From NCBI GenBank assembly GCA_051382295.1, contig JBBCAW010000055.1:1-36715 (forward strand): DNA of 36,715 bases. The letters run 5' to 3'. The translations under genes were made by a program, and so were the position numbers. How positions within the stretch are numbered: the stretch's first letter is position 1; each line of letters starts with the position of its first letter. Below are positions 1,100 to 36,715 of the stretch, piece after piece. Source of the DNA: Bdellovibrionota bacterium FG-1. GTDB lineage: Bacteria; Bdellovibrionota; UBA1018. Below the pieces are notes generated by a model, which saw nothing but the letters and a program-made list of their open reading frames with translations, had not been told where the DNA came from and did not search any database.

Positions 1100-1960
1100 G
1101 TGCTTGTAATCATAGGTAGTATCATTGTTATCATCTCAGTCTTTGGCGGCTTCATTATGGAAGGAGGCAAGCTTCAAGTTCTGATTCAACCAGTCGAATT
1201 AATGATCATCGGTGGAGCGGCACTCGGTTCGCTAGTTACCTCTTCTCCTCTCCCACTCATCAAGCAAATCGTTGCGCAAATTTTAGGGGTCCTCAAAGGA
1301 AAAGACCCCACCAAAGAGGATTATAATGAGTTATTGCTTCTGCTTTTTGAACTGATCAAAACAGCCAAGGGCAATCCACTTTCCCTCGAGCCCCACGTCG
1401 AAAACCCAGAAAACAGCGAAATTTTCAAACGTTATCCCAAGGTTCTCGCCAATCACCATGCGATTCACTTTATTTGCGACACCCTAAAAGTTCAGGTCAG
1501 CTCTCCGATGAACCCCTACGATCTAGAGGACTTAATGAACGTCGATATCGCTACGGCGCATACCGAAGAATTGCGCGCATCGACTACCGTCGGCCGCATC
1601 AGCGACGCCATGCCAGGCTTAGGGATTGTGGCCGCCGTTCTCGGGGTCGTCATCACAATGGGTAAACTTGCGCAAGGTAAGGAAGTCATCGGTCACTCAG
1701 TTGCCGCCGCCCTCGTGGGTACGTTTCTGGGGATCTTGGGTTCTTATGGATTTATGCAACCTCTAGCCGCAAAAATGGAGGCCTCGATTAACGAAACGGG
1801 AGCCTATCTGGAAGTGATTAAAGGAGCGATTCTCGCTTATGCCAAAGATTCATCACCTAAAGTCTGTGTCGAATTTGCGCGACGAACAGTTCCACCGGCC
1901 ATCCGGCCTTCGTTTGCCGAAATCGACCAAGCAACTTCTAACCTCAAAAAGGCGGCCTAA
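1100..1960 (+). CDS. motA: Flagellar-type stator A subunit (E. coli-like MotA), pair 1
   Basis: QPVELMIIGGAALG, SLEPHVENPENSEIFKRYP, DAMPGLGIVAAVLGVVITM, AALVGTFLGIL, CVEFARR; 4 TM helices. Confidence 0.95.
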   Translation: MLVIIGSIIVIISVFGGFIMEGGKLQVLIQPVELMIIGGAALGSLVTSSPLPLIKQIVAQILGVLKGKDPTKEDYNELLLLLFELIKTAKGNPLSLEPHVENPENSEIFKRYPKVLANHHAIHFICDTLKVQVSSPMNPYDLEDLMNVDIATAHTEELRASTTVGRISDAMPGLGIVAAVLGVVITMGKLAQGKEVIGHSVAAALVGTFLGILGSYGFMQPLAAKMEASINETGAYLEVIKGAILAYAKDSSPKVCVEFARRTVPPAIRPSFAEIDQATSNLKKAA

Positions 1961-1986
1961 CCCCGAATTAACTAGGGCGATCAATC

Positions 1987-2706
1987 ATGGCGGATAAAAA
2001 AGCATCCATCATCATCAAAAAGATCAAAAGAGGGGGCCATGCGGCCGCCCACGGTGGGGCCTGGAAAGTTGCCTTCGCCGACTTTATGACTGCGATGATG
2101 TGCTTTTTTTTGGTGATGTGGCTCATGGGCGCTGACGAAGCCACCAAGGCCGCGATTGCCCACTATTTTAATAATCCCTCATCACCTGAGGCCTGGCGCC
2201 CGGATATGCATGACCGAGACGCAATCCCCTTAGGAAATCAAACCGGTGCCGGAGATAGTGTCTTGCGGGGGGCCAACGGCGAAGTGCCCGAAGACCTGGT
2301 TCAGCATCCTCAACCGATTCAAGAACGCAAGCCCGATAGCCAAGGGCCACTCGAATCAGAAGGGACCCTTTCGAGGGACGAAATCGCCTCGGCCGAAGCC
2401 ATCACGTTTTCGATCCCAGAAAAAGACCTCTTCGTGCCAGAAAAACCCGAGCTAACCATGGCCCGCGCTGAAATCGCACTCAAACGGATCCAAAAAGTCG
2501 CTCGAACTTTTAAAGGAAGTTTAGTGATTCGAAGTACCTATGACGACCTCAATAAATCCGATTACGAATTCCAAAATAGTCGGATCATCGAAATCAAAAG
2601 GCACATGGTTGAGGAACGTTGGTTAAGTGAGGACCTCATCAGTAATTCGCTGAGCAAAGGTGACACCAAAAACGGCCGCAATTACGAATTCAATTTCCAG
2701 AAATAG
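1987..2706 (+). CDS. motB: Stator B subunit (MotB), pair 1, with degenerate C-terminal OmpA-like domain
   Basis: HGGAWKVAFADFMTAMMCFFLVMWL TM with the essential Asp, plug region IAHYFNNP; C-terminus lacks GHTD and NWELS motifs. Confidence 0.9.
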   Translation: MADKKASIIIKKIKRGGHAAAHGGAWKVAFADFMTAMMCFFLVMWLMGADEATKAAIAHYFNNPSSPEAWRPDMHDRDAIPLGNQTGAGDSVLRGANGEVPEDLVQHPQPIQERKPDSQGPLESEGTLSRDEIASAEAITFSIPEKDLFVPEKPELTMARAEIALKRIQKVARTFKGSLVIRSTYDDLNKSDYEFQNSRIIEIKRHMVEERWLSEDLISNSLSKGDTKNGRNYEFNFQK

Positions 2707-2728: not shown

Positions 2729-3601
2729 CTATTGGATAATCTCGATGTTTTTATCGCTCACGTCCTTCAAGTTCTCGGTTACACCACCCGACTTGAATGG
2801 CAGCAGTTGAAATTGGAACGGGCCCAAAAGCATCTTTCCGCCCGAATTCTCAACTTGCCAGATATAGTGATCATTCATCTTAAGGCGCGCCTCTGTAGTT
2901 TTTCGAGAAACTAACTGCGCTTGATGAATAATAGTCTTCGATCCATTTCGAATGACAAAGGTACCCGTCAAGGGATCCGGCCAAGCAAAGGGGATTTTTG
3001 CCTCGCCCCCCTTCAGTAAATAAAAGATCGTGTCTGCCTTGGGATAAACCGACAACTGCGTTACGTCCACCACCGGCGAGGGCCCCGGCAAAACAGGAGC
3101 ATCGGGACCACTCCCCAGGGGAGCATCCCGCGAATTGGACAAATCACTCTCCGGGCTAAAACGCTGATCCGTGCCTGCAACGAGTTTTTCGGAGGGACCT
3201 CCGCCAGAAGCTTTTAAATTCGCCTCGCCACGTAAAACTTCGATCGCTCCCTTTTTAATATCTTCACCCTTACGAGCCAGAAGAATCAAAAACGTCTTTT
3301 CTTGCATTTCTAGACGCGAACCATCACTAAACTCAATCGAGGCGTGCTGCCCAGCCCCTACCCAAATGGCGTCGCGGTGGTAAAGAGGCCCGCCTGTCTC
3401 TACCGGAGAAAATACCACCATTCCCACCCGTTTACGTTCAAGTCCACCAGAACGCACTTTTGCAATCGCTACTCCGACTCTTCCGCCCCCGACGTCGAGC
3501 GTGATTGCATTATCGGCAAACTGGTAAAAACACAAAAACGAGAGAAATCCAAAAAACAGGTTCGAGATAAAAGAAAATAATTTGCGCTTCTTTTCATTCA
3601 T
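2729..3601 (-). CDS. Membrane-anchored FecR-like domain protein
   Basis: N-terminal TM then LYHRDAIWVGAGQHASIEFSDGSRLEMQEKT (FecR-like pattern); Pro-rich linker; beta-rich C-terminus; ATGA overlap with the phosphatase gene. Confidence 0.65.
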   Translation of the reverse strand: MNEKKRKLFSFISNLFFGFLSFLCFYQFADNAITLDVGGGRVGVAIAKVRSGGLERKRVGMVVFSPVETGGPLYHRDAIWVGAGQHASIEFSDGSRLEMQEKTFLILLARKGEDIKKGAIEVLRGEANLKASGGGPSEKLVAGTDQRFSPESDLSNSRDAPLGSGPDAPVLPGPSPVVDVTQLSVYPKADTIFYLLKGGEAKIPFAWPDPLTGTFVIRNGSKTIIHQAQLVSRKTTEARLKMNDHYIWQVENSGGKMLLGPFQFQLLPFKSGGVTENLKDVSDKNIEIIQ

Positions 3602-5412
3602 TGCATTGCTCTCGAACAGAGTACAACCGTGACATCATCCTCGGCAGGCATCCCGACCGTGAGAAGGGCCCGCTCTGAAAGTACCTTTTCAAGCAACAGA
3701 CGACTGGAAAGCTGGCTATTCTTGAGCAAAGTCTTGGATAGCCTACGCCGGTCAAAGGAAGGCTGCCCCTCTCTGATCAGTTCGACCAACCCATCGGTAA
3801 AAAGAAAAAGTTGATCACCGTTTCTCCAAGGCCGCGTCACCAGATCCATGAATTCGGCCTTAGGATCGCCCAAAACGGGGCCGGGAGTGGCAATCGCGCT
3901 GACCACGCTCTGGTTAGGCTTGTCTTTGGAGTCCTGAGAACTAGAAATTAAGTAGGGCCAATTATGACCCGCATTCGCCGCAACCAGGGTGTCGGTATTC
4001 GGGTCCAAGACAGCCGCAAAAAAAGACATACTGAGCTCCCCACCAGAGGACTCGACAACGGTTTGATTGAATAACCGCAGAATATTTCTGGGGTCCCTTA
4101 AAATTTCTGGCGAGCTTTCAAGCCATTTTGAAAGGATGCTCGTGCACCCTTGAGTAGCCGCAGTCAAGAGGGCGGAGGAGATCCCATGCCCCGTAACATC
4201 TCCGATCATCACCAAGATAAGAGGCTTGTCGCCGGATTTTGGGGCGGGAACCTCGATATAGCCCCACCAATCCCCCCCGCATCTCGCTGCCATCTGCACA
4301 GAACTATGAAATTCGTGTCCAGCAATACTAATTTTTCTCTCCGGAAAAAACCACTGCTGAACCCGCTGGGCAGTCACGATCTCAGCCTCCATCAAGGCCC
4401 CTTGTTTCGTATCATCGATCAATTGGGAAATCCGATCGGCCATTCGATTAAAGGTCGATTGAACCACGGCGATTTCTTCCTCGCCCGTAACCTCAGCTCG
4501 AAAAGCCAGGTCCCCAGCGCCAAATTTTTCGGCTGAAGCCCGAAGAGCGCTGAGCGGTTCAGAAATTCTGGCTGCAAAAACCTTCCCCAAAACCAGGCAT
4601 AAAAACAGAAAACCGCCCCCGAGCAGGAGCATCTGTTTGACGATAAACTGCACAGGGTTCATGGCCGCCTCTAACAGCCCAAAAGAAAACAGCATTTTGT
4701 CGCCAAGAAGTGGCGCAAAGGCAATCACTTGTTTGGATTGCCCGCTGACCACGCCCGGCCCCCCGGTGGCGAGAGCTTGCTTCAAGTAGCGCTTAATTTC
4801 GGCTTCATTGTTATCTTTGTCAGCGGCATTTTCGAGGTTGCGCCAGATCACCTCACCGTTTTGATCAGTGACATAAAAAGAATTTTTTCCCGTAGACCCG
4901 CCCAGTGAATCCATATCGATCACCAACACCCGCTCTTTTTCTGGAGTTTTAACGAGGGCGGCCAGATAAGGGCCTTGAAACCTCACGGGTTGAGGTAGGA
5001 ACTCTATTTTGGGCGATGCACTCGTTTGGACGGAATGACAGCCAGTTTTGAACGCGGGCGACCAAACCAGACTCAGGGGCGGAAGATCAAGATATTGAAA
5101 AGCCTTGACGAAAAAATCCGAAATCATCACCACTGGATTGCGATGTTCCGCCATCGCCAAACAGGGTTGCTCAACCAGCAGAACGACATCTTTCGAGCGC
5201 ATCACGGTATTGGCATCAAAAATAGCCGAGGAAGCCAGCAAACTCTCGGCCCGATCAACGACTCGAGTCGTATTGTCCAAATCATGTTCATAGACCGCGG
5301 CCAATTTTTCGTTCACATAAAAACGGACAAAAAACCCTGCCGAACCAAGAACGGCGAGAAATACCAGGAGAAAAATAAGGACACTCAGTTTCGTGTGATA
5401 CCTTAAATGCAT
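3598..5412 (-). CDS. Membrane sensor PP2C/SpoIIE-family Ser/Thr phosphatase with HAMP domain
   Basis: TM-periplasmic-TM-HAMP (ISEPLSAL..GDL..EEIAVVQSTFNRM), then GGDWW, GDVTGHG, ANAGH, FTDGLVE, EDDVT. Start likely 5412 or 5460 rather than 5619. Confidence 0.9.
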   Translation of the reverse strand: MHLRYHTKLSVLIFLLVFLAVLGSAGFFVRFYVNEKLAAVYEHDLDNTTRVVDRAESLLASSAIFDANTVMRSKDVVLLVEQPCLAMAEHRNPVVMISDFFVKAFQYLDLPPLSLVWSPAFKTGCHSVQTSASPKIEFLPQPVRFQGPYLAALVKTPEKERVLVIDMDSLGGSTGKNSFYVTDQNGEVIWRNLENAADKDNNEAEIKRYLKQALATGGPGVVSGQSKQVIAFAPLLGDKMLFSFGLLEAAMNPVQFIVKQMLLLGGGFLFLCLVLGKVFAARISEPLSALRASAEKFGAGDLAFRAEVTGEEEIAVVQSTFNRMADRISQLIDDTKQGALMEAEIVTAQRVQQWFFPERKISIAGHEFHSSVQMAARCGGDWWGYIEVPAPKSGDKPLILVMIGDVTGHGISSALLTAATQGCTSILSKWLESSPEILRDPRNILRLFNQTVVESSGGELSMSFFAAVLDPNTDTLVAANAGHNWPYLISSSQDSKDKPNQSVVSAIATPGPVLGDPKAEFMDLVTRPWRNGDQLFLFTDGLVELIREGQPSFDRRRLSKTLLKNSQLSSRLLLEKVLSERALLTVGMPAEDDVTVVLCSRAMQ

Positions 5413-5572
5413 AACCAGAGTACTGGGTGAGAGTTCATTGAGTAAATATTCTATATTCATTTTCGATTTCCGAAACCCGGCAATATTTACCGATACCATG
5501 CCATTAACTGCTTGCCATGCCCCCACATCGACTGGATAATTAAACGAACGAAACAAGGAGAGCGCCCTCACC

Positions 5573-6358
5573 ATGAACATTTCGACGCCACTGGGTTTTA
5601 TTTGTGGAATCGCCGTCATTTACTATGCCGCCAATCACGGGATCAAAAACCCAGATGTCTTTTTCAGCCCTCATGCGGCGATCATCGTCATTGGCGGGAC
5701 GGCAGCCGCCGCCCTCATCTGTTTTCCGCTTTCTCACTTTTTCAACCTCTTTAAGATTTTTATCCGCACCCTTTTCGGCCAAGTGCTCGCTCAGCAAACT
5801 TTGACGATTAATGAAATCGTGAAACTTTCGGAGGTTGTCAATCAAGGACGACCTATTTCCAACGAACTCAGCCGCATCAAAAATCCTTTTCTCAAAGAGT
5901 CTTTGCTGCTCCTGACCCAAGGGGGCCTTACCAACGACGAGCTTGAGGAGATTCTGGAAAAACGGGTAGAGCTGCAAAACGAGAAGTACAAAAGAGAGGG
6001 CTTCACCTTTAAAATTATCGGAAAATTTCCACCCGCCTTCGGGCTGGTCGGCACCACCCTGGGTATGATCGTGCTGTTGCAAGGAATTGGATCGCCCGAC
6101 GCCTTTGATCATATTGGGCCCTCGATGTCCATCGCCTTAGTAGCGACCTTTTACGGCTTGGTTTTTGCGAACGTTTTTCTCATCCCGATGGGCGAAAATC
6201 TCACCCGCGCGTCCGAAGACGATCTCATTATGCGACGAATCGTCGTGGATGGAGTCCGGCTTTTGCGCGAACAAAAACACCCACTATTAGTGGAAGAGTA
6301 TTTAAAAAGCTACTTAGCTCCCGCCGAACGCACTAAAATGAAAAAGGCCTCCGTGTGA
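5573..6358 (+). CDS. motA: Stator A subunit (MotA/PomA/MotP-like), pair 2
   Basis: IIVIGGT, KFPPAFGLVGTTLGMI, IGPSMSIALVATFYGLVFAN..P; AAGGAG RBS. Confidence 0.9.
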   Translation: MNISTPLGFICGIAVIYYAANHGIKNPDVFFSPHAAIIVIGGTAAAALICFPLSHFFNLFKIFIRTLFGQVLAQQTLTINEIVKLSEVVNQGRPISNELSRIKNPFLKESLLLLTQGGLTNDELEEILEKRVELQNEKYKREGFTFKIIGKFPPAFGLVGTTLGMIVLLQGIGSPDAFDHIGPSMSIALVATFYGLVFANVFLIPMGENLTRASEDDLIMRRIVVDGVRLLREQKHPLLVEEYLKSYLAPAERTKMKKASV

Positions 6359-7203
6359 CCACTGGAAGAGTCGAGACTAAACCGGGCATGATACCCCCTG
6401 GGCCGCCCAAAGGCCCCCCCAAGGCGCCTCCTCAAACCTCTGCCCTGGCATCTGGAACGCGACGGAAGCGCTCCCGAGGATACAAGCCGGAACGCGTCGT
6501 TGTCCACGATGACGGAGATGGTAATTGGCTGGTTTCGTATGCTGATATGATGACCCTGCTGTTTGCCTTTTTCGTCATCATTGCGGCGTTTTCGACACCT
6601 GATGCCTCAAAACTTGAAAAACTCAAGGAATCCACAAGTAAATCGATGGGCGTCGATTACGTGAGGCCCTTTACCGATCTCTCAAACAATCTTAAAACCG
6701 TTCTTAGTCAAAGTGATGTTGGCAAGGAGGTCTCCGTTTCCGACACCTCTGATGGATTAGTCATCAGCGCCAGTGGCACTTTGTTTTTTGAATCGGGCTC
6801 GGTGGACCTGACCCCCGGAGCCGCAGTTCTGATCGATCACATCACTGACGTCTTGATCGCGAACGCAAAATCGTTTCGCATTTTTGTCGAAGGACACACG
6901 GACGATACCCCCATGCACTCAGAACACTATCCGAGCAATTGGGAGCTCTCCTCGGCCCGTGCGGGCACCGTAGTCCGTCGTCTCGAAGGCAAAGGTTTTC
7001 CTCACTCGATGCTCCGTCCACTGGGCCTAGCTGATGCAGAACCTCTTCTCCCCAACCGGGATGATTCTGGACAGGTTATCACTGAAAATCAGGCAAAAAA
7101 TCGGAGAATTGTGATTAGAATTCAGAAACAACTTCCCGATCGAATGAAAAAATTAAACCCGCCTCCGTCACGCTCTAAAACCCCAACACCAACCCCGCTA
7201 TGA
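6355..7203 (+). CDS. motB: Stator B subunit (MotB, OmpA-like peptidoglycan-binding domain), pair 2
   Basis: WLVSYADMMTLLFAFF, FFESGS, VEGHTDD, YPSNWELSSARA, KNRRI; GTGA overlap with motA2. Confidence 0.93.
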   Translation: MTTGRVETKPGMIPPGPPKGPPKAPPQTSALASGTRRKRSRGYKPERVVVHDDGDGNWLVSYADMMTLLFAFFVIIAAFSTPDASKLEKLKESTSKSMGVDYVRPFTDLSNNLKTVLSQSDVGKEVSVSDTSDGLVISASGTLFFESGSVDLTPGAAVLIDHITDVLIANAKSFRIFVEGHTDDTPMHSEHYPSNWELSSARAGTVVRRLEGKGFPHSMLRPLGLADAEPLLPNRDDSGQVITENQAKNRRIVIRIQKQLPDRMKKLNPPPSRSKTPTPTPL

Positions 7204-7807
7204 CATGAATCGGGGTAAAGGTCGTCTTACCGCTCGTCAACCATTCACCACCCACCCCGCCCGTCAGTGATATCAAATGCCCAATAGGGTATTCGTAAGA
7301 CAGCACGCCCCCCATCCCACTAAAGGGCAAAACCGTCACTGAACTATTAAACAGAAACTGCGAGGCCGAAAGCTGGAACCGAAAACCGCCCGAATTCTCA
7401 CTCTCTGCCGAGTAAACTTCGGCACCGCTCATGGATATAATTTCAGATTTCTGCACTAACGATCCGGTCAAAGCAAAAACGAAGCGAAGTTCAATGGCGG
7501 TGTAAATCGGCCACAACCCCGCACTCACATAAAAAGCCTGACTAAGTCTCGCGCCAAAGCCAAAACGATCCCAATACCCATAACTCACACCTAAACCGAG
7601 AGCGGTACCATTGATGGTTTTTCCCGCATTCGAAAAGGTGATGTATTCGGGGGTCACCGCCAAACTCACCCGATGACTCTCCTCGCGGGTAGCGATTTGC
7701 ATACTATCCTCAGCCAGAGCCTCGACGGTTCCGCTCCCTCCCATCACCCCGAACAGAAAAAGAAAGGCCCCGACATTCCTCATTTTATGCAGCCTTGGTT
7801 CCATCAC
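7175..7807 (-). CDS. Putative small outer-membrane beta-barrel protein
   Basis: Signal peptide (..VEALA), amphipathic Gly/aromatic strands, C-terminal IHVIAGLVLGF ending in Phe; exact start Met uncertain. Confidence 0.65.
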   Translation of the reverse strand: MMEPRLHKMRNVGAFLFLFGVMGGSGTVEALAEDSMQIATREESHRVSLAVTPEYITFSNAGKTINGTALGLGVSYGYWDRFGFGARLSQAFYVSAGLWPIYTAIELRFVFALTGSLVQKSEIISMSGAEVYSAESENSGGFRFQLSASQFLFNSSVTVLPFSGMGGVLSYEYPIGHLISLTGGVGGEWLTSGKTTFTPIHVIAGLVLGF

Positions 7808-9458
7808 GAATGGCTTCTCGGTTCATTTCAATCAAGCCGCTTTCTTCATTCAATCGATACTGATCGGGACCGGCCACTATCTTCGCGACATGCTCGTGAA
7901 TGGCGCGAAACACGGCCGAATTTCGGCTCGGTTGAATTCGTGAAGCATAACTGATGAGCAACTTAGCTTTTTTAGGCGGAATAACGGTCATGAGTTTCTC
8001 AAGGATTTCGGGAGGCCCGATCCAAGCCGTGGCCAAATCTCGCGCCGAATAAGTTTTAAGCACGGCCTCGGCCATTTTTGGATCAATCAACAGGAGCCAA
8101 CCCAGGGAGGGGGCTGCCTGCACGATCTCGGTCGTTACTTCAGCCAAGCCCAAGAGTCCGCGCTCCTCCTCAATCGAAATCGTATTCAGCCGGACCTGTT
8201 TGCGTAAACTACGAATTGCCGAAGGTTTTAGACCGGCAAAATCGGGCGGCTGAGTCAGGCGATCTACACCCCCTCTCGCCAGTTCAATACGCTCGAGGGC
8301 CGTAAAAGACATTGACTCAATTCGAAGACTCGAGAGCTTTGAAAAAAGGCTCTTATTTTTACGCACCACATCGGTCAATACCGCATTATCCAAATGCCAA
8401 ACCGGCAGAGGGAAAATATAGTAAGGGTCTTGATCGTTTTTTAGATTATTTTCAGCCTGATTTTGAAGGTGCCCTGCATAATCCTGCAAAAAAGGTGCAG
8501 CATCTAAAAGGGCCTTCTTTCTGGGAACAGGAATTCTGCGCCACAAATAGGCCCCATACTCGTCGCATTCGCTCCAGTAGCAATCAGTCAAAAGGGCCAG
8601 TAATCCTTCGTCGGTAAAGGAATTGTACAATTCTGAGCCGGTGGTGCCTGGCTCTCCAGACTGCGCCCCTTGTGATACCTGGGTATTTTCGGTCTCTCGG
8701 AAGGTGCCCGCCTCTGGGTTCCGTCCTCCACCGCCCTGCTCCATGGCCGCACCGAGACGCTCAAAACCGTCATTGAGAGCCTTCAGCATGGTGCTTTTTC
8801 CACGCATTGCACTCCATATAATCAACAAGAACAAAAAGACAAACAATCCAACTGCCGTTAAAATGCCTAGGCCAATCGGTCCAGTCACTAAGGCCCTGAG
8901 GTCATCGGTGATCACCTTGTAATAATCGACCTTGGGCACTGCCAACTTAGCCTCCAGGGCAGCGGCCTTTTTTTCCATTTCCAATTTTGCATCATTGGCT
9001 GACTTCAGTTCATAAGCCGTTCGGGCATCCATCGCGTTTTCGTCGCTATACAAAGCCTCCGGCAAAGGATCGACCTTAATCGTGGGACGTGGCCCCAGGT
9101 CTGCCAAAAGATTTTCGATCAACCGCAAAACCCCTTGGGGCACGGATTGTTTGCGAGTCACTAACCGGACGTCGACTCGAGCGATCGCCAGATCACCCCG
9201 ACCATCCTCCACGGAAACATTTTTCAACACAAAAGGAGTCATCGGCAACGCATGATCCTGTTGCTTAGCTTGCAAACTCACAAAGACAAAAGCCTGCCGG
9301 TCAAAACTTTTCACGATCGGAGAAATTCGCTCTTCGAGCTGCCGCTGCAGTCTGAACAACGTTTCGCGACTATCTGCGGCGGCTTCACGAATCCCGGCGG
9401 TGGCCGGTAAGAGCAAAATCAGAAAGATGAAAAGGGGCCTCAATTTGAGCTGACTCAT
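7785..9458 (-). CDS. Single-pass membrane protein, putative FliF-ring-motif/FliG-like fusion (module A rotor candidate)
   Basis: Signal peptide; periplasmic alpha-beta-beta-alpha-beta domain (about 9060-9368); TM (about 8814-8880); C-terminal segment (about 7875-8110) aligning by eye with FliG_C. Confidence 0.6.
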   Translation of the reverse strand: MSQLKLRPLFIFLILLLPATAGIREAAADSRETLFRLQRQLEERISPIVKSFDRQAFVFVSLQAKQQDHALPMTPFVLKNVSVEDGRGDLAIARVDVRLVTRKQSVPQGVLRLIENLLADLGPRPTIKVDPLPEALYSDENAMDARTAYELKSANDAKLEMEKKAAALEAKLAVPKVDYYKVITDDLRALVTGPIGLGILTAVGLFVFLFLLIIWSAMRGKSTMLKALNDGFERLGAAMEQGGGGRNPEAGTFRETENTQVSQGAQSGEPGTTGSELYNSFTDEGLLALLTDCYWSECDEYGAYLWRRIPVPRKKALLDAAPFLQDYAGHLQNQAENNLKNDQDPYYIFPLPVWHLDNAVLTDVVRKNKSLFSKLSSLRIESMSFTALERIELARGGVDRLTQPPDFAGLKPSAIRSLRKQVRLNTISIEEERGLLGLAEVTTEIVQAAPSLGWLLLIDPKMAEAVLKTYSARDLATAWIGPPEILEKLMTVIPPKKAKLLISYASRIQPSRNSAVFRAIHEHVAKIVAGPDQYRLNEESGLIEMNREAIRDGTKAA

Positions 9459-10162
9459 GGTTTCACCCGCTCGGTGATACGAATACTGAGTGATCGAGTA
9501 TGCCTCGAATGCTCACTCGCCCCTTCAGAAAAGACTCGGGCAGGATCGAATCCCATTTGCAACGCAATCTCGACAGCCCGGACTGCCCTCAGATTGGACA
9601 ATACCAAGTTGGAGTCAACCACTTGGGTATGCGCCCCCCTCGCAAAGGCCGATGCATCGGTATGGCCCACGAACGTGACCGAAATTTTATCGCGATAAGG
9701 CGTCAAAAGCTGCAATATGCGCGCAAGCTCGCCCTTAATTCGTCCGTCGAGATTATAATGACCCACCCCAAAGATGTCATCCGGCAGCTCGGCTACCATT
9801 TCTTCGCCAAATTGCCGAAGAGAAACTTTTTCCCCACTCAGCACCGAGGTCAACTGTTTGAAAAGCTCCCGTTTGGGTCCCCCCTCTCCCAGCGTAGCCC
9901 CTGGGGTTGCGGTCGGTGGGGGTTTGGCTGCCGCAACACCCATACCTCCGGCCGTGGCGTCCTTTTTAAGCGTCAAAATGATTTCTTTAATGGGTGAGTT
10001 CTCGGGCATATCGGACATTTCAAAATACATCACAAAAAAGCTCATCAGCACCATCAGCAAATCGCTATAAGAAATGGCCCATAAAAACTGCATAGGATCC
10101 TCGAAGATCTCTTCGCGGCGACGCTTGGGCAGAGGAAGATGGCGCTTGGATCTAGGCTGCAT
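9455..10162 (-). CDS. motB: Stator B subunit (MotB-like), pair 3
   Basis: WAISYSDLLMVLMSFF TM with Asp, FVGHTD, SNLVLSNLRA; ATG at 10162 has GAGGAG upstream (ORF track start 10189). Confidence 0.88.
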   Translation of the reverse strand: MQPRSKRHLPLPKRRREEIFEDPMQFLWAISYSDLLMVLMSFFVMYFEMSDMPENSPIKEIILTLKKDATAGGMGVAAAKPPPTATPGATLGEGGPKRELFKQLTSVLSGEKVSLRQFGEEMVAELPDDIFGVGHYNLDGRIKGELARILQLLTPYRDKISVTFVGHTDASAFARGAHTQVVDSNLVLSNLRAVRAVEIALQMGFDPARVFSEGASEHSRHTRSLSIRITERVKP

Positions 10163-10859
10163 GACCGCCGAGCTCCTCCTCAATGACATCAGGGCTTTCG
10201 CCTTGATGAATCAGCATCAACACCTGGCAGATATGCTCATTTTGCCGACTCTTCCGTAAATGTTGAACGTAGATTCGGTCGGCCAGTGGCATCAGAAAAA
10301 CGTTGGACAAAATCAAACCGTAAAAAGTGGCGGTCATAGCAAGGGCCAAACTCGGCCCCAACTGCCCCCTGCGATCCGGCGTCAACCCCGAGAACAAAGA
10401 CACTAACCCAATCACGGTACCGGTCATCCCGAGCGCTGGGGGATATTTAGCCAAATTCCGGATGGTCGCCACGGCCTGCTCGGTGGTTGAATTCAGCTCA
10501 TCTACTCGCTGTTGAAGTAGAATCCCGAAGATTTCCGGATCATGCCCCTCGGCCCAAAGATTTTGCGCGAAACCAATCAGCGAATGCGGTTTCTTAACGA
10601 CGGCATCTCGTTTGCGACTCAGCTGCCGCAACCCCTGATTGATCACTTGGCGCGATACATCCGGATTTTTAAGCGCCCAAAGACTCTTGAACAGACCGAC
10701 AATTTCAGTTCCAGGAGATGAGATCCCCAAGACTCCAATCGTCCCGACAAAAACCAGGATAATGGAATGCATGTTCAGCAAAGTCTTGGGGTTCATGTCT
10801 CCCAGAGCAAAAGCCAAGACCGCGGCCATAATCAATGAACCGAGCGGCAACGTGATCAT
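10152..10859 (-). CDS. motA: Stator A subunit (short divergent MotA-like), pair 3
   Basis: ILVFVGT, KYPPALGMTGTVIGLV, LGPSLALAMTATFYGLILSN..PLA; shortened cytoplasmic loop. Confidence 0.88.
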   Translation of the reverse strand: MITLPLGSLIMAAVLAFALGDMNPKTLLNMHSIILVFVGTIGVLGISSPGTEIVGLFKSLWALKNPDVSRQVINQGLRQLSRKRDAVVKKPHSLIGFAQNLWAEGHDPEIFGILLQQRVDELNSTTEQAVATIRNLAKYPPALGMTGTVIGLVSLFSGLTPDRRGQLGPSLALAMTATFYGLILSNVFLMPLADRIYVQHLRKSRQNEHICQVLMLIHQGESPDVIEEELGGHAA

Positions 10860-11521
10860 CTCTTCCCTCCGGGAACATTTGTTCGTTTGACCGCCGTGGA
10901 AGCTGGCCGGGACGCCGGCGTACGTTGGGGAGTCGACCCATCTTGATAATCTCGGCCGGAAAGGGACTTATAGAGCGCCAAGGCCGAGGCGTTATTAGGA
11001 AGTTCCGCAAGCGCACTTTCTAATAAAACCCGGGCGGATTTTCGGTCCCCCATGACGACGAGACAGCTTGCCTTCAAAAATTTAAGAAAACTCAAATTGG
11101 GGTATTTTTTATAGAGCTCATCGGCCTTGAACAAAGCCTCTTTGGGCTGATCCGACCCCAACGCCATTTGAATCTCGCTCACGGAGGTCATGACTTCATT
11201 GAGAATGAGATTGTTTCTTTTTTGCAACACCTCGCCTCCCCATTGCTCCGCGGGCCGTAATGCCACACGAATTTTAGAAGCCACACTGCGCGGCGGTGGA
11301 ATCAAAACGCCAACAAAACCCGGCGATTCAATATATACAGGGAGTGCTTGCACTTGGAGAATCGACCCCTTTTTCTTAGCCTGCGCAGGTCCCGACCCTA
11401 CTCGTACAAACGCATCCTGTTGCAACTCCACGTCCTGCCGCGGAACAGACGAGCAGCCACTCACAACCACCAGGGCTGCGGGGATGATCCAAATGCAATA
11501 TGAAAATCGGGACAAGACCAT
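10856..11521 (-). CDS. TPR-containing lipoprotein (module A)
   Basis: Lipobox LVVVSG-C; C-terminal TPR pair (EALFKADELYKKYPN..ARVLLESALAELPNN); ATGA overlap with motA3; start 11521 or 11539 rather than 11608. Confidence 0.75.
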   Translation of the reverse strand: MVLSRFSYCIWIIPAALVVVSGCSSVPRQDVELQQDAFVRVGSGPAQAKKKGSILQVQALPVYIESPGFVGVLIPPPRSVASKIRVALRPAEQWGGEVLQKRNNLILNEVMTSVSEIQMALGSDQPKEALFKADELYKKYPNLSFLKFLKASCLVVMGDRKSARVLLESALAELPNNASALALYKSLSGRDYQDGSTPQRTPASRPASTAVKRTNVPGGKR

Positions 11522-11755
11522 ACATTGTCCGATCGTCATTACTATGCTTTTTCTAAATGACTTTGTTTGCAACGGATCGGTCAAAAACATGACGCGAAAA
11601 CTGATCACTCATTGGTAGAAATCCATAGGCTCTGAAATTTAGCTGGAACCCTTAAAAATTAAGGCTTTTTTAAATCCTCTTGAACCAAAAAAAAAGGTCA
11701 AGTACTCTATCAATAGACATTCAATCTATTGATCCGTTTTTCAGAGGGGGAATCC

Positions 11756-33217: not shown

Positions 33218-34318
33218 GTGCTTCATGGATTAGGACGCTCAATCAAAATCACTTTTGGCCTCGCTTTCGCGATGGGAATAGCCTTGCCCCCTGCGTACGC
33301 GAAAGCCCCGTGGGAGCGAGACTTCTATGAAGTCGTCAAGGACGTCGTCGGTGATTTTGAATACGACCTCCGAGATGGATCAGCCAAGGGGGTTCAAAAC
33401 ATCTCCTTGAGGAATATCACGACCAGCGAAAACATCCCGGCATCTTTTCGCGACCACCTCGAAGTTTTGATCAATGAGAGCATCGTGAACAACACCAAAT
33501 CCAAGGTGATTCAATGCATCGCCTGTAGGGCCAAACGAGCCACCTTGACCGGCTCTCATTTTGTCGTAAAAACTCCCGAAACCAATCCTACCGAACTTGC
33601 GCGGATCGCCAAAGAAGCCGGTATTGAACACTTTTTAGACGCGGTTTTCACCTTTCAGTCCACGAGTATGATTCTCTCTCTCACGATTTCGGACCCAAAG
33701 GATGGGACCGTGGTCTGGACTCGAAATTACAACTCCGAAACCAGCCGCGCCGCCGCCTTTCGGCGCGGAATCGACTACTCGCAATCTGATCTCGCGCGCC
33801 GGGTGACCGAGTATGCGCCCTCCATCCAATATCGAGGCGTCGTTTATTATCTTTCTGAACCCAATGTCACCGGACTCAGCGGGTGCGTAGGCGCCGGTTT
33901 TAGGATGGTTCAACGTTATGACAACCGAAAAAAAGAAATTGGCTTCGAGGCCGACTACATCCGAAACGCCGCAACCTTAAGCGGCACAGTAACGGGCGCA
34001 TCTGGCGGATCCAGCTCAGATCCAGATCTCTACGGGATGATTAACTTAACGCTCCTTTTTGTTCACAGCTGGAACTTTATCGCCAACAAAGAGGACTTTG
34101 ACAAAGTTCGTGGCAATATTTTGGTTGGGGTGGGAGGAACCTACTCTGCCGGATATATGGGCGGACTCATCCGAACGGGTTGGGAATGGCGTTTAGCCAA
34201 ACATTTTGCGGTCAATGCCGTGGTGGGATTCAGACCCAGCTCGACCGCGATGATCGGGGCTAAAGGCACGACGATCTCCGGAGCGGAGATCGGCGCGGGA
34301 ATCAACTTACTTTACTGA
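33218..34318 (+). CDS. Exported protein with CsgG/TolB_N/FlgO-like N-domain and C-terminal outer-membrane beta-barrel (module B)
   Basis: Signal peptide (..PAYA); ELARIAKEAGIEHFLDAVF..LSLTISDPKDGTVVW pattern; CIAC; amphipathic strands ending AEIGAGINLLY. Confidence 0.65.
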   Translation: MLHGLGRSIKITFGLAFAMGIALPPAYAKAPWERDFYEVVKDVVGDFEYDLRDGSAKGVQNISLRNITTSENIPASFRDHLEVLINESIVNNTKSKVIQCIACRAKRATLTGSHFVVKTPETNPTELARIAKEAGIEHFLDAVFTFQSTSMILSLTISDPKDGTVVWTRNYNSETSRAAAFRRGIDYSQSDLARRVTEYAPSIQYRGVVYYLSEPNVTGLSGCVGAGFRMVQRYDNRKKEIGFEADYIRNAATLSGTVTGASGGSSSDPDLYGMINLTLLFVHSWNFIANKEDFDKVRGNILVGVGGTYSAGYMGGLIRTGWEWRLAKHFAVNAVVGFRPSSTAMIGAKGTTISGAEIGAGINLLY

Positions 34319-34333
34319 GAATAGGAGGAAAAA

Positions 34334-34945
34334 GTGAAAAGGATCATAATTGCAAGCGCTCTCACTACTTTGACCCTCTCAGGTTGTGCCTCCGTCAAGT
34401 CTTTCCTTGCGCTCAATGCTTATGACAACACGCCTCCCCCCATTCACAACCCCTTTGATGCGTACGACTCAAAAACCGACTCCACCGACAACATTATTAT
34501 GCGCACCCGCAAGGGCGAACGGTCCATGGAAGTCGAACTTCCAGGCGGAACCTCCCACCTCTCGGAACTCAGCATTCCGGTTTCAAGCGCGTTGCAGGAT
34601 ACCGTCGCGCGAAACCCAGCCTCGGTCTCCCCGATCGAAGATCCAGGCGCCAACGACCCTTCGGCCGAGGGTAACGAAAGTTACGTTTCTGCGCTCAAAC
34701 ATGTGCAATACCTCTATAAATCCCGCCGTTTTGAGGCCGCACTTATCGAAATCGATCACATCCTCAAACAATACCCTACCGCCTCTAAGCTGCATCAAAT
34801 GCGCGGGACTTTACTCGATAGAATCGGACAGCCGCAACTCGCCCTAAAAAGCTGGAGACATGCCCTAGAGCTCGACTCGGGCAATGTGACCTTACGGCGC
34901 TTTGTGGACTCACGCGAACAAAAAAGGAGCCTAGCCTCACCATGA
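34334..34945 (+). CDS. TPR-containing lipoprotein (module B)
   Basis: AGGAGG RBS; lipobox LSG-C; TPR pair (AALIEIDHILKQYPT..ALKSWRHALELDSGN). Confidence 0.85.
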   Translation: MKRIIIASALTTLTLSGCASVKSFLALNAYDNTPPPIHNPFDAYDSKTDSTDNIIMRTRKGERSMEVELPGGTSHLSELSIPVSSALQDTVARNPASVSPIEDPGANDPSAEGNESYVSALKHVQYLYKSRRFEAALIEIDHILKQYPTASKLHQMRGTLLDRIGQPQLALKSWRHALELDSGNVTLRRFVDSREQKRSLASP

Positions 34946-36715
34946 AAATCAGGACAGGCACCCTTCGATTATTCAAAGCCCTGAGTATCATGACGGCCGT
35001 GATGGCCATCAGCGCGACCCTGCCCACCGAGTCTTTGGGAAACTCCAACGCCAAATACAGCGCAGTGGAAACGGTTCAAAAAAACACTGAAGCTCAGGTC
35101 CGACGACTGATTGAGCCGATCTTGGATAAATATTGCCAAGAAAGCTGCAAACTCCTTTCAGTGAGCACCATCGTCGATATGGCCACCGCGGATGAAGTGG
35201 CCCCGGGTTTTGATGAAGTCGAAGGCACATCCAAGGCCGCGGAGCTTGCGCCGAGTTCGGCCCGTGTCAAGCTATTGATCGATGACAAAGTCGGTCCGAT
35301 CTCGCGCCAAAAACTCACGGAACTCGTACAACAATTTTTAGATACGCTGGATTTTCCAGTTAAGATCGACACTCAGTTGGCCCACTTCCCCCAGCCGGTC
35401 GGGGCTGAAAGTCGTGTTGTTGAACTCAGGGATAAAATCATCCGACAGTTCCGTGGAACCATGGACGAACTGTTTAAACAGTTCTGCCCCGAACAGTGCT
35501 TGCTTGCGGATTTTAACATCGTAACCGAAACGGTGAATCCCGAAGAGGCCCAGTATGGGAAGCCCGGCGAATTCATTCAAGACTCCGGCGTAGCCCTCAA
35601 GATCAAAGACATTACGGGTACCATCCTCGTAGACGAAGCCCTCCCCCCCACCGAACGCAACAATATCGTTGAAATGGCTAAGCTCAAAGCGAATGTCTTT
35701 AGAAATGTCAATTTAACCGGAAAAACCCTTAAATTTCCGCATCCTAATTTATTTGTTAACGCCCAAGGCTTAGCCGTCGCGAGTGGGCCCAATGGCGGAC
35801 CTATTTCCGAGAAGGAAAAGAACGATTCTCGGTCTTTAGCCTCAACGAGCGATTCTAAAGAAGCAAAAACGATCACCAACGAATCCCTTCATAAATCGAC
35901 CGCTACCAACGCCAATCAGAATTCAGAAAACAACCAACGCCAAGAAAAATACGAACGCTTTGAAAAAATCGAGCGCGTGGAAAATGGCGACGCGGTACAA
36001 GCTGAACTACAAAAGTTCAAGGTTTTTGGGCTGATTTTCGCTTGTGCGGTCATCTCGTTGCTTATTTTCTTGGCGATGGCAAGCTACCGGCCTCATGGCG
36101 GAGGAGGTAGCGACTCCTCGCCCATCACTCGAATCATTCAAACGATTGCTCAAGATCCCACAGGTGGGATGTCCGGCCCGGCAACCTTGGGCCCCCCCTC
36201 GGCGAGCGAACATCGTGGGCTGGTCGCCATGCGTTTTGAGATCGAGCGCCTGACCGAGGAACTTACCGCGGTCTTTGCCCAACATCCCAAAGTAGCCAAG
36301 CAGGTGTTTAGCCGAGTCCTGACGGAGGAAGGCGTCGAGACGACCTCGCAATACATTCAGATCTTTGGCGAATCCATCGTGATGGACATGCTTCGCGACC
36401 CCTCTTTGCAGAGCGATCTCTCCGAACTCATGGAATTTTACGCTAAAAACCCCTCTGAACTCAAAGACGAAGAGAAGCTCGATCTTCTGCGCAAGCTTCA
36501 CAATCGCACGATCGCGGGCAAGCTGCTCGTCATGGGCAATCGCTCCTCCAACCTCTTTGACTTCTTGGCCGAAATGGATGGCCTCCAGATTCTCGAACTC
36601 GTGCGCAACGAATCCCTTACGGTAAAATCAATCGTATTGACCCAGGTGGATCCGCAAAAACGGGCGGCCATCTACTCCCAACTGGACGAAGAAACCCGAA
36701 TGCAGCTCTTAAGCG
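34942..36715 (+). CDS. FliF/FliG-like fusion membrane protein, 3'-truncated by the window (module B rotor candidate)
   Basis: Absent from the ORF track; I translated it by hand from ATG 34942 (ATGA overlap) and found no stop before the window end. Signal peptide, two tandem periplasmic repeats, TM at 36022-36081, FliF-tail-like QHPKVAKQVFSRVLTEE, FliG_M-like LFDFLAEMDGLQILELVRNESLTVKSIVLTQVDPQKRAAIYSQLDEETRMQLL. Confidence 0.85.
   Translation, partial: MKIRTGTLRLFKALSIMTAVMAISATLPTESLGNSNAKYSAVETVQKNTEAQVRRLIEPILDKYCQESCKLLSVSTIVDMATADEVAPGFDEVEGTSKAAELAPSSARVKLLIDDKVGPISRQKLTELVQQFLDTLDFPVKIDTQLAHFPQPVGAESRVVELRDKIIRQFRGTMDELFKQFCPEQCLLADFNIVTETVNPEEAQYGKPGEFIQDSGVALKIKDITGTILVDEALPPTERNNIVEMAKLKANVFRNVNLTGKTLKFPHPNLFVNAQGLAVASGPNGGPISEKEKNDSRSLASTSDSKEAKTITNESLHKSTATNANQNSENNQRQEKYERFEKIERVENGDAVQAELQKFKVFGLIFACAVISLLIFLAMASYRPHGGGGSDSSPITRIIQTIAQDPTGGMSGPATLGPPSASEHRGLVAMRFEIERLTEELTAVFAQHPKVAKQVFSRVLTEEGVETTSQYIQIFGESIVMDMLRDPSLQSDLSELMEFYAKNPSELKDEEKLDLLRKLHNRTIAGKLLVMGNRSSNLFDFLAEMDGLQILELVRNESLTVKSIVLTQVDPQKRAAIYSQLDEETRMQLLS
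35080..35745 (+). repeat. Tandem protein-level duplication (about 116-117 aa period)
   Basis: YCQESC (Cys 35134, 35146) and FCPEQC (Cys 35485, 35497) are 351 nt apart; FPQP (35386) and FPHP (35734) are 348 nt apart. Confidence 0.75.

Follow-up and report, generated by a model that had tools for sequence, protein, structure and literature searches.

What is a fusion of two flagellar rotor proteins doing outside a flagellar gene cluster? The question is raised by a 36,715-nucleotide stretch of Bdellovibrionota bacterium FG-1 (contig JBBCAW010000055.1 of assembly GCA_051382295.1; hereafter the window), which is the whole of contig C55 of this genome (G000) and ends inside the gene in question. 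An earlier look at the letters of the sequence (hereafter the original prediction) had proposed a natural FliF-FliG fusion belonging to an undescribed rotary system. The fusion and its conserved operon are solid. That part of the claim was borne out, while the rotation of the module is something that I infer from the sequences. The reading that I favour, with moderate confidence, is a one-way, flagellum-independent motor made from the flagellar rotor-stator core and acting on outer-membrane partners; this reading is drawn from genes and predicted structures. Statements taken from published sources refer to the accessible parts of those sources.

The fusion protein, its operon and its stator

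An ATG at position 34942 opens a frame of 591 codons without a stop up to the end of the window, which confirms the frame of at least 591 codons claimed to be missing from the gene track. The contig ends inside the frame, and a gene list made from stop to stop therefore leaves it out. The start codon of the fusion overlaps the stop codon of the gene for a tetratricopeptide repeat (TPR) lipoprotein (ATGA). The two periplasmic repeats and the one transmembrane (TM) helix that had been read by eye were both recovered: the repeats of the window protein align with each other (E 4e-5, 18% identity), and there is one hydrophobic segment past the N-terminus (Kyte-Doolittle 2.85, residues ~356-384). 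The 30 residues quoted as a FliF-like tail sit exactly at 36241-36330, and the FliG_M-like block, placed from 36550, was found to start at 36547-36550. Pfam FliG_M matches residues 549-589 of the window protein (E 1.1e-4); truncation of the domain keeps the score below the curated cut-off.

What lies beyond the contig end? No overlapping contig of the genome with the middle of the fusion gene was found, and all statements on FliG_C rest on homologs, as the window gene stops short. Among 8000 candidates scored, 226 homologs were found at E<=0.001, and those bearing names belong to Bdellovibrionota/Oligoflexia. Full-length relatives are ~750-840 aa long and consist of a signal peptide, two RBM3-like domains, one TM helix, a FliF-like tail, and FliG N, M and C domains. 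FliG_C is present in 118 of the 120 homologs listed, nearly all of which have 730-840 aa. Thus, the missing part of the window gene is FliG_C, as the original prediction had expected. An ending with the CBS and TM domains of an MgtE transporter, which would have spoken against a fusion, is not the case; the 120 homologs listed contain no CBS pair or MgtE membrane domain, and the FliG region gave no more than a weak MgtE_N overlap.

An AlphaFold2 model was made of the homolog P0004, which is 65% identical to the window protein, from a 110-sequence alignment. Its mean pLDDT (predicted local distance difference test) is 79 and its pTM (predicted template modelling score) is 0.39, so that the placement of the domains is unreliable. 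The top 20 Foldseek matches of the model are FliG or FliF only. Repeat 1 (P0004 36-146) matches FliF 232-438 (Z 10.2, root-mean-square deviation [rmsd] 2.9 over 95), and repeat 2 (P0004 149-262) matches FliF RBM3 (Z 10.9, rmsd 2.2 over 97). The FliG_M (Z 12.2, rmsd 1.6 over 80) and FliG_C (Z 11.8, rmsd 1.8 over 89) domains match FliG, and P0004 467-761 as a whole aligns to FliG 4-323 with a high overall rmsd from domain movement.

The sequences were compared independently of the fold. A profile of 19 distant single-repeat relatives, built without FliF, aligns to residues 233-545 of the genome's own FliF, which span RBM3, the second TM helix and the tail (E 7.7e-7 among the genome's ORFs; 25.9 bits versus at most 4.6 in 500 shuffles). 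A periplasm-only profile found, at E<0.5 in the genome's ORFs, only the two fusions and the own FliF (E 1e-7). The distant member P0245 scores above the Pfam FliF_C cut-off, Pfam FliG_M and FliG_C match the full-length homolog, and Pfam FliG_N matches distant members. By itself, the double-repeat profile reaches neither the own FliF (E 0.052) nor the type-A proteins (E 0.04). Thus, the link of the double-repeat proteins to both runs through the single-repeat members. Judging from these profiles, it is sequence, not fold alone, that settles the homology to FliF. The FliF-FliG fusion is supported by profiles, Pfam and predicted-structure matches, and its FliF portion is the C-terminal half only: RBM3 (doubled), the second TM helix and the tail. 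The first TM helix and RBM1/RBM2 (PF01514) occur only on contig C1 in this genome, and no match was found on P0001 or P0004. The split RBM3 domain of FliF is present in the fusion, and its beta-collar is reduced to a short loop. On the FliG side, full-length P0004 reaches 47.9 bits with the FliG equivalog TIGR00207, below the curated cut-off of 226.7 bits, and the fusion carries a TM helix, unlike the soluble FliG of the fliFGH cluster.

Does the fusion have constant partners? I collected 80 genome loci of related fusions and counted neighbours at loci with at least 2.5 kb of DNA on the given side. Upstream, a barrel protein is found in 61/61 loci and a TPR lipoprotein in 60/61. Downstream, motA and motB are found in 66 of 67 loci (the exception is L046) and a gene for a cyclic nucleotide monophosphate (cNMP)-binding protein in 56 of 67. 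The conserved order is barrel protein, TPR lipoprotein, fusion, cNMP-binding protein, motA and motB. No export, rod or switch genes lie near the fusion, and none of the 80 loci has a match to fliF, fliG, fliH, fliI, flgB or flgC at E<=1e-20 (fliE was outside the test). The proposed coupling of the fusion to genes for a TPR lipoprotein and an outer-membrane protein rather than to flagellar genes such as fliH and fliI therefore holds across the family. The AlphaFold2 (AF2) model of the barrel protein has a mean pLDDT of 84; its barrel matches NspA (Z 16.4, rmsd 2.5 over 140) and its N-domain LpoB (Z 10.6, rmsd 4.0 over 129), TolB tops its Foldseek list, and its Atlas neighbours are LpoB and CsgG. 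Cys18 of the TPR lipoprotein is invariant (53/53 aligned). A lipoprotein of no Pfam family, absent from the window, is encoded upstream, usually divergently, in most double-repeat loci (L179:2879-3670, located at G000:C62:108878-109669).

The residues at which rotor and stator meet were examined in fusions of at least 700 aa (73 of the 80 loci), 43 mid-distance homologs and 18 single-repeat relatives (P0264 was left out of 19). Columns were mapped via the own-genome FliG onto what I take to be Arg281, Asp288, Asp289 and Arg297 in E. coli/Vibrio numbering. The EHPQ(R) motif of FliG binds FliM. In 73/73 fusions this column reads E-S/T-x-T, with the His gone and the Gln replaced by Thr, and the Gly-Gly motif is Pro-Gly, also in 73/73; as far as these columns tell, the FliM-binding motif is lost in the fusion family. 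The Arg281 column is Asp or Glu in 72 of the 73 close sequences and in 43/43 mid-distance homologs, and the acidic pair (Asp288/Asp289) of the torque helix is retained. The Arg297 column is mostly Ser, Asn or Gly, with a basic residue in the adjacent next column in 69 of 73. The charged ridge that had been expected in FliG_C is thus present, but it is charge-remodelled.

The 69 cognate MotAs were mapped via the own-genome canonical-type MotA onto presumed Arg90 and Glu98 (PomA R88 and E96) and the Thr columns. At least 68 of 69 have a residue other than Arg in the Arg90 column, Glu is outside the five commonest residues of the Glu98 column, and a basic pair lies just upstream of the Arg90 column (69/69 and 68/69). 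The cognate MotBs have the essential Asp motif (69/69), a plug and an OmpA domain. The best NCBIfam matches are PomA/MotP for MotA and MotS/MotD for MotB; by these matches, the stator is of the flagellar type and not of the ExbB/TolQ type. PomA R88, E96, T158, T185 and T186 are functionally important, and the three Thr residues are a sodium-driven signature (PMC10374538). This signature is mixed here: the Thr158 and Thr186 columns are Thr in 69/69, and the Thr185 column is Gly in 68/69. Nothing is drawn from a MotA tree of 21 rows (14 of the 69 cognate MotAs), which had long branches and mostly open forks. An acidic rotor helix opposite a shifted basic stator patch suggests an insulated rotor-stator pair.

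Might the same parts make up a machine that does not rotate? In an energised, Tol/Ton-like envelope machine or sensor, MotAB would pull on, or be gated by, the fusion, serving outer-membrane upkeep or surface sensing and signalling via the cNMP protein or neighbouring HAMP-phosphatases. The TolB_N-type domain of the barrel protein, the lost canonical torque charges and the frequent cNMP gene would suit such a machine, as would SpoIIE/HAMP and FecR genes near a second module of the window (module A, see below) and HAMP-type genes beside the Bdellovibrio gene. On the other side stand the flagellar-type stator with its PomA/MotP match, MotB plug and OmpA domain, the retention of all three FliG domains and RBM3 across distant lineages, and the complementary charge changes on both partners. 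I regard the non-rotating machine as rather unlikely.

Relation to the flagellum and the wider family

Is the fusion simply a rotor protein of the flagellum? The canonical flgBC-fliEFGHI cluster, with a single fliF and flhA, was found on contig C1, separate from the window. This rules out the window gene as the only fliF/fliG of a flagellar cluster and supplies the separate canonical genes that the original prediction had called for. The fusion was matched in 46 of 61 related genomes, and the double-repeat query found no match in several flagellated relatives (e.g., 6/6 genomes of family f2). Genome G104 (91% complete, 380 contigs) has barrel, TPR, motA and motB genes and a single-repeat fusion in one operon; no flagellin, FlhA, rod protein or second FliG_C was found in it. 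In its order, flagellin was found in 0/9 genomes and the fusion protein in 1/9. The tetranucleotide distance of the operon's contig is 0.0086, within the 0.007-0.012 spanned by 18 further contigs of the bin, and the nearest foreign locus is at 0.016. Thus, the contig has the composition of its genome.

When a 28-row profile was run against 301 genomes of the phylum, 274 positives were obtained, most of which are ordinary FliG, and single-repeat members of 560-720 aa were also found. In 16 single-repeat loci chosen from the best matches, for which DNA was fetched, motAB was found in 14 and a TPR protein in 15. Large genes beside single-repeat modules encode, in 7 of 8 cases, proteins with fn3, Ig, FG-GAP, LamG or NHL repeats. 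As a lead from the listing alone, Atlas clusters with FliG_C/M, some with FliF_C as well, come most commonly from Pseudomonadota, Balneolota, Elusimicrobiota and Bacteroidota. Searching metagenome and viral contigs with single proteins gave no match, and plasmids gave only 13 partial matches of the ordinary FliG type. At loci L136 and L137, two family-like genes (~400 and ~640 aa) stand in tandem ahead of motAB.

The L126 protein is identical to CAE80783.1, a 'FliG protein' of Bdellovibrio bacteriovorus with 577 aa and a single periplasmic repeat, and matches the window's family in a profile comparison (probability 95.8, E 8e-9). The layout of this locus is motA, motB, barrels, TPR protein and membrane-anchored FliG. 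Primers for Bd3021 and Bd3020 (PMC11323537 supplement) match the motA and motB that adjoin the L126 fusion. Thus, by primer matching, motAB2 of B. bacteriovorus is the stator of the single-repeat module; in that genome, the two remaining motAB pairs have no such neighbours. Transposon sequencing (Tn-seq) data for strain 109J (PMC6561027) contain no insertions in canonical fliG. The scores of motAB2, 1.9-2.4, indicate no defect, and EP01_RS00400, taken by gene order to be the fusion, scored 0.58-0.78, below its neighbours and far above the threshold of 0.1. A stand-alone FliG-like gene, Bd0878, had very low fitness in the same data (PMC6561027). Most epibiotic relatives are without motAB2 (10.1101/2025.02.19.638989). 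The name 'Bd3014' gave no literature match.

Several points weigh against a flagellum-independent motor. A match to the RBM3 fold is not decisive alone, because C-terminal domains of cation-efflux proteins match RBM-like alpha/beta folds with Z up to 9.8. The loss of the canonical torque charges could mean that no torque is made, and single-repeat members retain Arg at the Arg281 column in 7 of 18. No large adhesin-like genes were seen beside the double-repeat loci. The non-flagellated case is a single metagenome-assembled genome, one of nine in its order. Canonical FliF is present in 60 of the 61 related genomes, and this group therefore cannot test flagellum independence. Flagellin genes lie within 8 kb of the fusion in 21 of 80 loci. 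All three motAB pairs of B. bacteriovorus are stated, citing Morehouse 2011, to serve one flagellum (PMC3526173, PMC13689555).

The last three points would also fit a flagellar accessory, in which MotAB is an auxiliary stator, the fusion is a stator store, a brake or an alternative ring, and the outer-membrane proteins form a polar scaffold. The contribution of motAB2 to flagellar motility is known second-hand from these two sources, and motAB2 expression changed in fliL mutants (PMC11323537). This reading is countered by the operon in G104, by the flagellated relatives without a double-repeat match and by the loss of EHPQ in every fusion examined. Furthermore, FliL bound MotB3 and not MotA2 or MotB2 in two-hybrid tests (PMC11323537), and canonical fliG lacked Tn-seq insertions despite the presence of the paralog (PMC6561027). 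An accessory role seems quite improbable.

Copies and other modules in this genome

The genome holds five family members versus one FlhA and one FliF. Two N-terminal parts (C55 and C62) stop at the same base, two C-terminal tails (C123 and C147) start at the same base, and ~140 codons are absent between them; the broken fusion copies are a collapsed near-identical repeat. Protein identity between the C55 and C62 copies is 93% for the fusion, 53% for the barrel and 42% for the TPR protein; DNA identity ranges from 75% to 100% in blocks, and the flanks differ. The C62 barrel is nearer to the barrels of relatives in 59/59 comparisons. The upstream neighbours typical of relatives are on C62 and the downstream ones (cNMP, motAB, zinc-ribbon protein) on C123. 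Since C62 and C123 together hold the neighbours that most relatives have on the two sides, they are likely the ancestral locus. C147 has a zinc-ribbon/SH3 protein and no motAB. I am fairly confident that the window copy continues into C147 and hence has no adjacent motAB; it is probably a diverged paralog without an adjacent stator. The motAB genes that the original prediction had thought possible downstream are thus found in the family, which has its own pair, but probably not beside the window copy.

Could the window copy be a decaying duplicate or a binning or assembly artefact? The shared break points of both copies and tails and the bin contamination of 5.01% could be read so, and the barrel gene of the other copy (G000:C62:109806-111521) contains 585 bases repeated exactly in tandem and lacks the C-terminal end of the barrel, which is probably an assembly artefact. 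The window frame, however, is free of stops over its 591 codons, its barrel and TPR genes are intact, and the family is present in many other genomes. The divergent barrel and TPR proteins beside near-identical fusions, with different flanks, would be better explained by an old duplication and gene conversion acting on the rotor gene than by two strains. A decaying duplicate or an artefact seems very unlikely.

Further members are found on C107 (610 aa), on C116 (544 aa) and in the window (module A; Table 1), each with a TPR protein and a probable barrel; motAB adjoins the C116 and module A members. The module A paralog has no Pfam or NCBIfam match. In genome G051, the double-repeat operon directly follows a module-A-like set. 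The further module-type motA/motB pair of the window is a candidate stator for the window copy, judging from its residues.

Table 1. Coordinates, strand and basis of the window features discussed in the text
Feature	Position	Strand	Basis
FliF(RBM3 x2, TM, tail)-FliG fusion, truncated	34942..36715	+	frame, Pfam, homologs, models, profiles
Probable signal peptide	34942..35040	+	basic N-terminus then hydrophobic stretch, judged by eye from sequence
RBM3-like repeat 1, CxxxC, short loop replacing beta-collar	35056..35391	+	homolog model, periplasm-only profile E 7e-16
RBM3-like repeat 2, CxxxC	35398..35742	+	homolog model, periplasm-only profile E 8e-10
Polar periplasmic linker, low confidence	35743..35988	+	pLDDT <50 in homolog model
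Single TM helix	36022..36084	+	hydropathy; aligned with second TM of own FliF
FliF-tail-like helices	36229..36336	+	own FliF residues ~512-545 fall in the same profile columns
FliG_N-like region	36337..36546	+	homolog model 467-761 vs FliG 4-323; Pfam FliG_N on distant members
Start of FliG_M, EHPQ motif replaced	36547..36714	+	Pfam; structural match
Outer-membrane protein: TolB_N/LpoB-type periplasmic domain with CxxC, 8-stranded beta-barrel	33218..34318	+	AF2 model
TPR lipoprotein	34334..34945	+	TPR_2 E 4.8e-5; stop overlaps fusion start
Module A divergent single-repeat paralog, 557 aa	7785..9458	-	profile-profile probability 95.9, E 6e-9 vs distant members, FliG part
Module A motA (10152-10859) and motB (9455-10189)	9455..10859	-	Pfam
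Module A TPR lipoprotein	10856..11608	-	TPR_19 E 1.6e-4
Module A probable small outer-membrane barrel	7175..7807	-	signal-peptide-like start, alternating pattern, C-terminal Phe; no Pfam match; inference
Further module-type motA/motB pair	5573..7203	+	Pfam; module MotA transmembrane motif, without canonical torque residues

Other stator-like and rotor-like genes were seen. An E. coli-type motA/motB pair with a MotA_N domain (window 1100-2706) has a layout like that of B. bacteriovorus motAB3 and is likely the flagellar stator. FecR-domain and SpoIIE/HAMP phosphatase genes (window 2729-5619) lie between the stator pairs, and similar genes are found beside single-repeat modules elsewhere. A MotB next to a canonical-type MotA has Gly at the essential Asp position and may belong to an inactive or regulatory stator (G000:C33:29894-30613). 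A motA/motB pair with an unusual MotB C-terminal domain adjoins an fn3/Ig lipoprotein, with no fusion gene seen nearby (G000:C54:29141-34762). Stand-alone short FliG_C proteins are encoded at G000:C141:13758-14201, C86:9212-9661 and C120:13312-14575, a group that also includes, behind a FliG_C-like gene of 94 aa, a second FliM-like gene. Finally, window 19785-21120 matches the entire small contig C145 (90.6% identity).

Proposed mechanism and known systems

How might such a motor work? Copies of the fusion would form an inner-membrane ring via RBM3 and FliG contacts; the MS-ring of FliF has ~34 copies. The cognate MotA5B2, anchored on peptidoglycan by MotB, would turn against the all-acidic torque helix. 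Because the FliM/FliN switch is absent, the drive would be one-way. The doubled RBM3 head would transmit force to the TPR lipoprotein and the outer-membrane barrel protein, and the cNMP protein may gate the motor. The most likely output, and the weakest step of the proposal, would be to move or pull large adhesins and similar complexes on the cell surface. In this scheme, the window copy would place a second outer-membrane head on a rotor that is nearly identical, probably borrowing a stator encoded elsewhere.

A wider reading is put forward tentatively, with slightly more doubt than belief. The module may be a third descendant of the flagellar apparatus and the mirror image of the injectisome, in which rotor and stator were kept and export, rod and filament were lost. 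The rotor ring, encoded by one gene and paired with an insulated stator, would drive outer-membrane partners to move or present adhesins, in several phyla including cells without flagella and in up to five versions per genome, and motAB2 would be its stator, not a spare flagellar one. If this is true, MotAB-FliG without export gate, rod and switch is a minimal natural rotary motor, which bears on the origin of the flagellar motor. A matched rotor-stator pair with changed charges offers a test of torque models, and with a single-repeat member beside motAB2 in the tractable B. bacteriovorus, the reason for its three stators is directly testable.

The Tol-Pal, Ton, Agl-Glt, GldLM/T9SS (type IX secretion system) and Zorya 5:2 motors resemble the module as ion-driven inner-membrane motors acting on outer-membrane partners, with the TolB_N-type domain and TPR lipoproteins as further points of likeness. 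None of these five is known to use a FliG/RBM3 rotor, and FliG-driven torque is known from flagella only. The stator classes of 5:2 motors have been surveyed (PMC12505986); the accessible parts of that survey, PMC10225642 and PMC13277936 do not mention the module. No description of the double-repeat module was found in a literature search that left most subscription papers outside.

Other FliF-FliG fusions are known. The Chlamydia protein is likewise a natural FliF-FliG fusion outside a working flagellum; it differs in having ~330 aa, two TM helices, the FliG middle region only and a proposed type III partner, and no FliG_C or cognate stator is described in the accessible text (10.1101/023564). 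Engineered or mutant fusions of Salmonella and Vibrio show that MS-ring formation and rotation are possible for a fused chain; they differ in containing full-length FliF and in working inside the flagellum (PMC10941966). The motAB2 locus of B. bacteriovorus has the same layout as the module and differs in its single repeat, and the literature, where accessible, treats motAB2 as a flagellar stator without mention of the fusion neighbour. With the flagellar motor core (FliF, FliG and MotA5B2/PomA5B2), the module shares the RBM3 fold, the second TM helix and tail of FliF, the N, M and C domains of FliG, as well as MotA and a MotB that has the plug, the Asp and the OmpA domain. In contrast to that core, the fusion is one polypeptide without RBM1/2 or the first TM helix; its collar is shortened to a loop, its RBM3 is present twice and bears CxxxC, the EHPQ and Gly-Gly motifs are gone and the torque charges are remodelled. 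Its loci have a TPR lipoprotein and a barrel in place of export, rod and switch genes.

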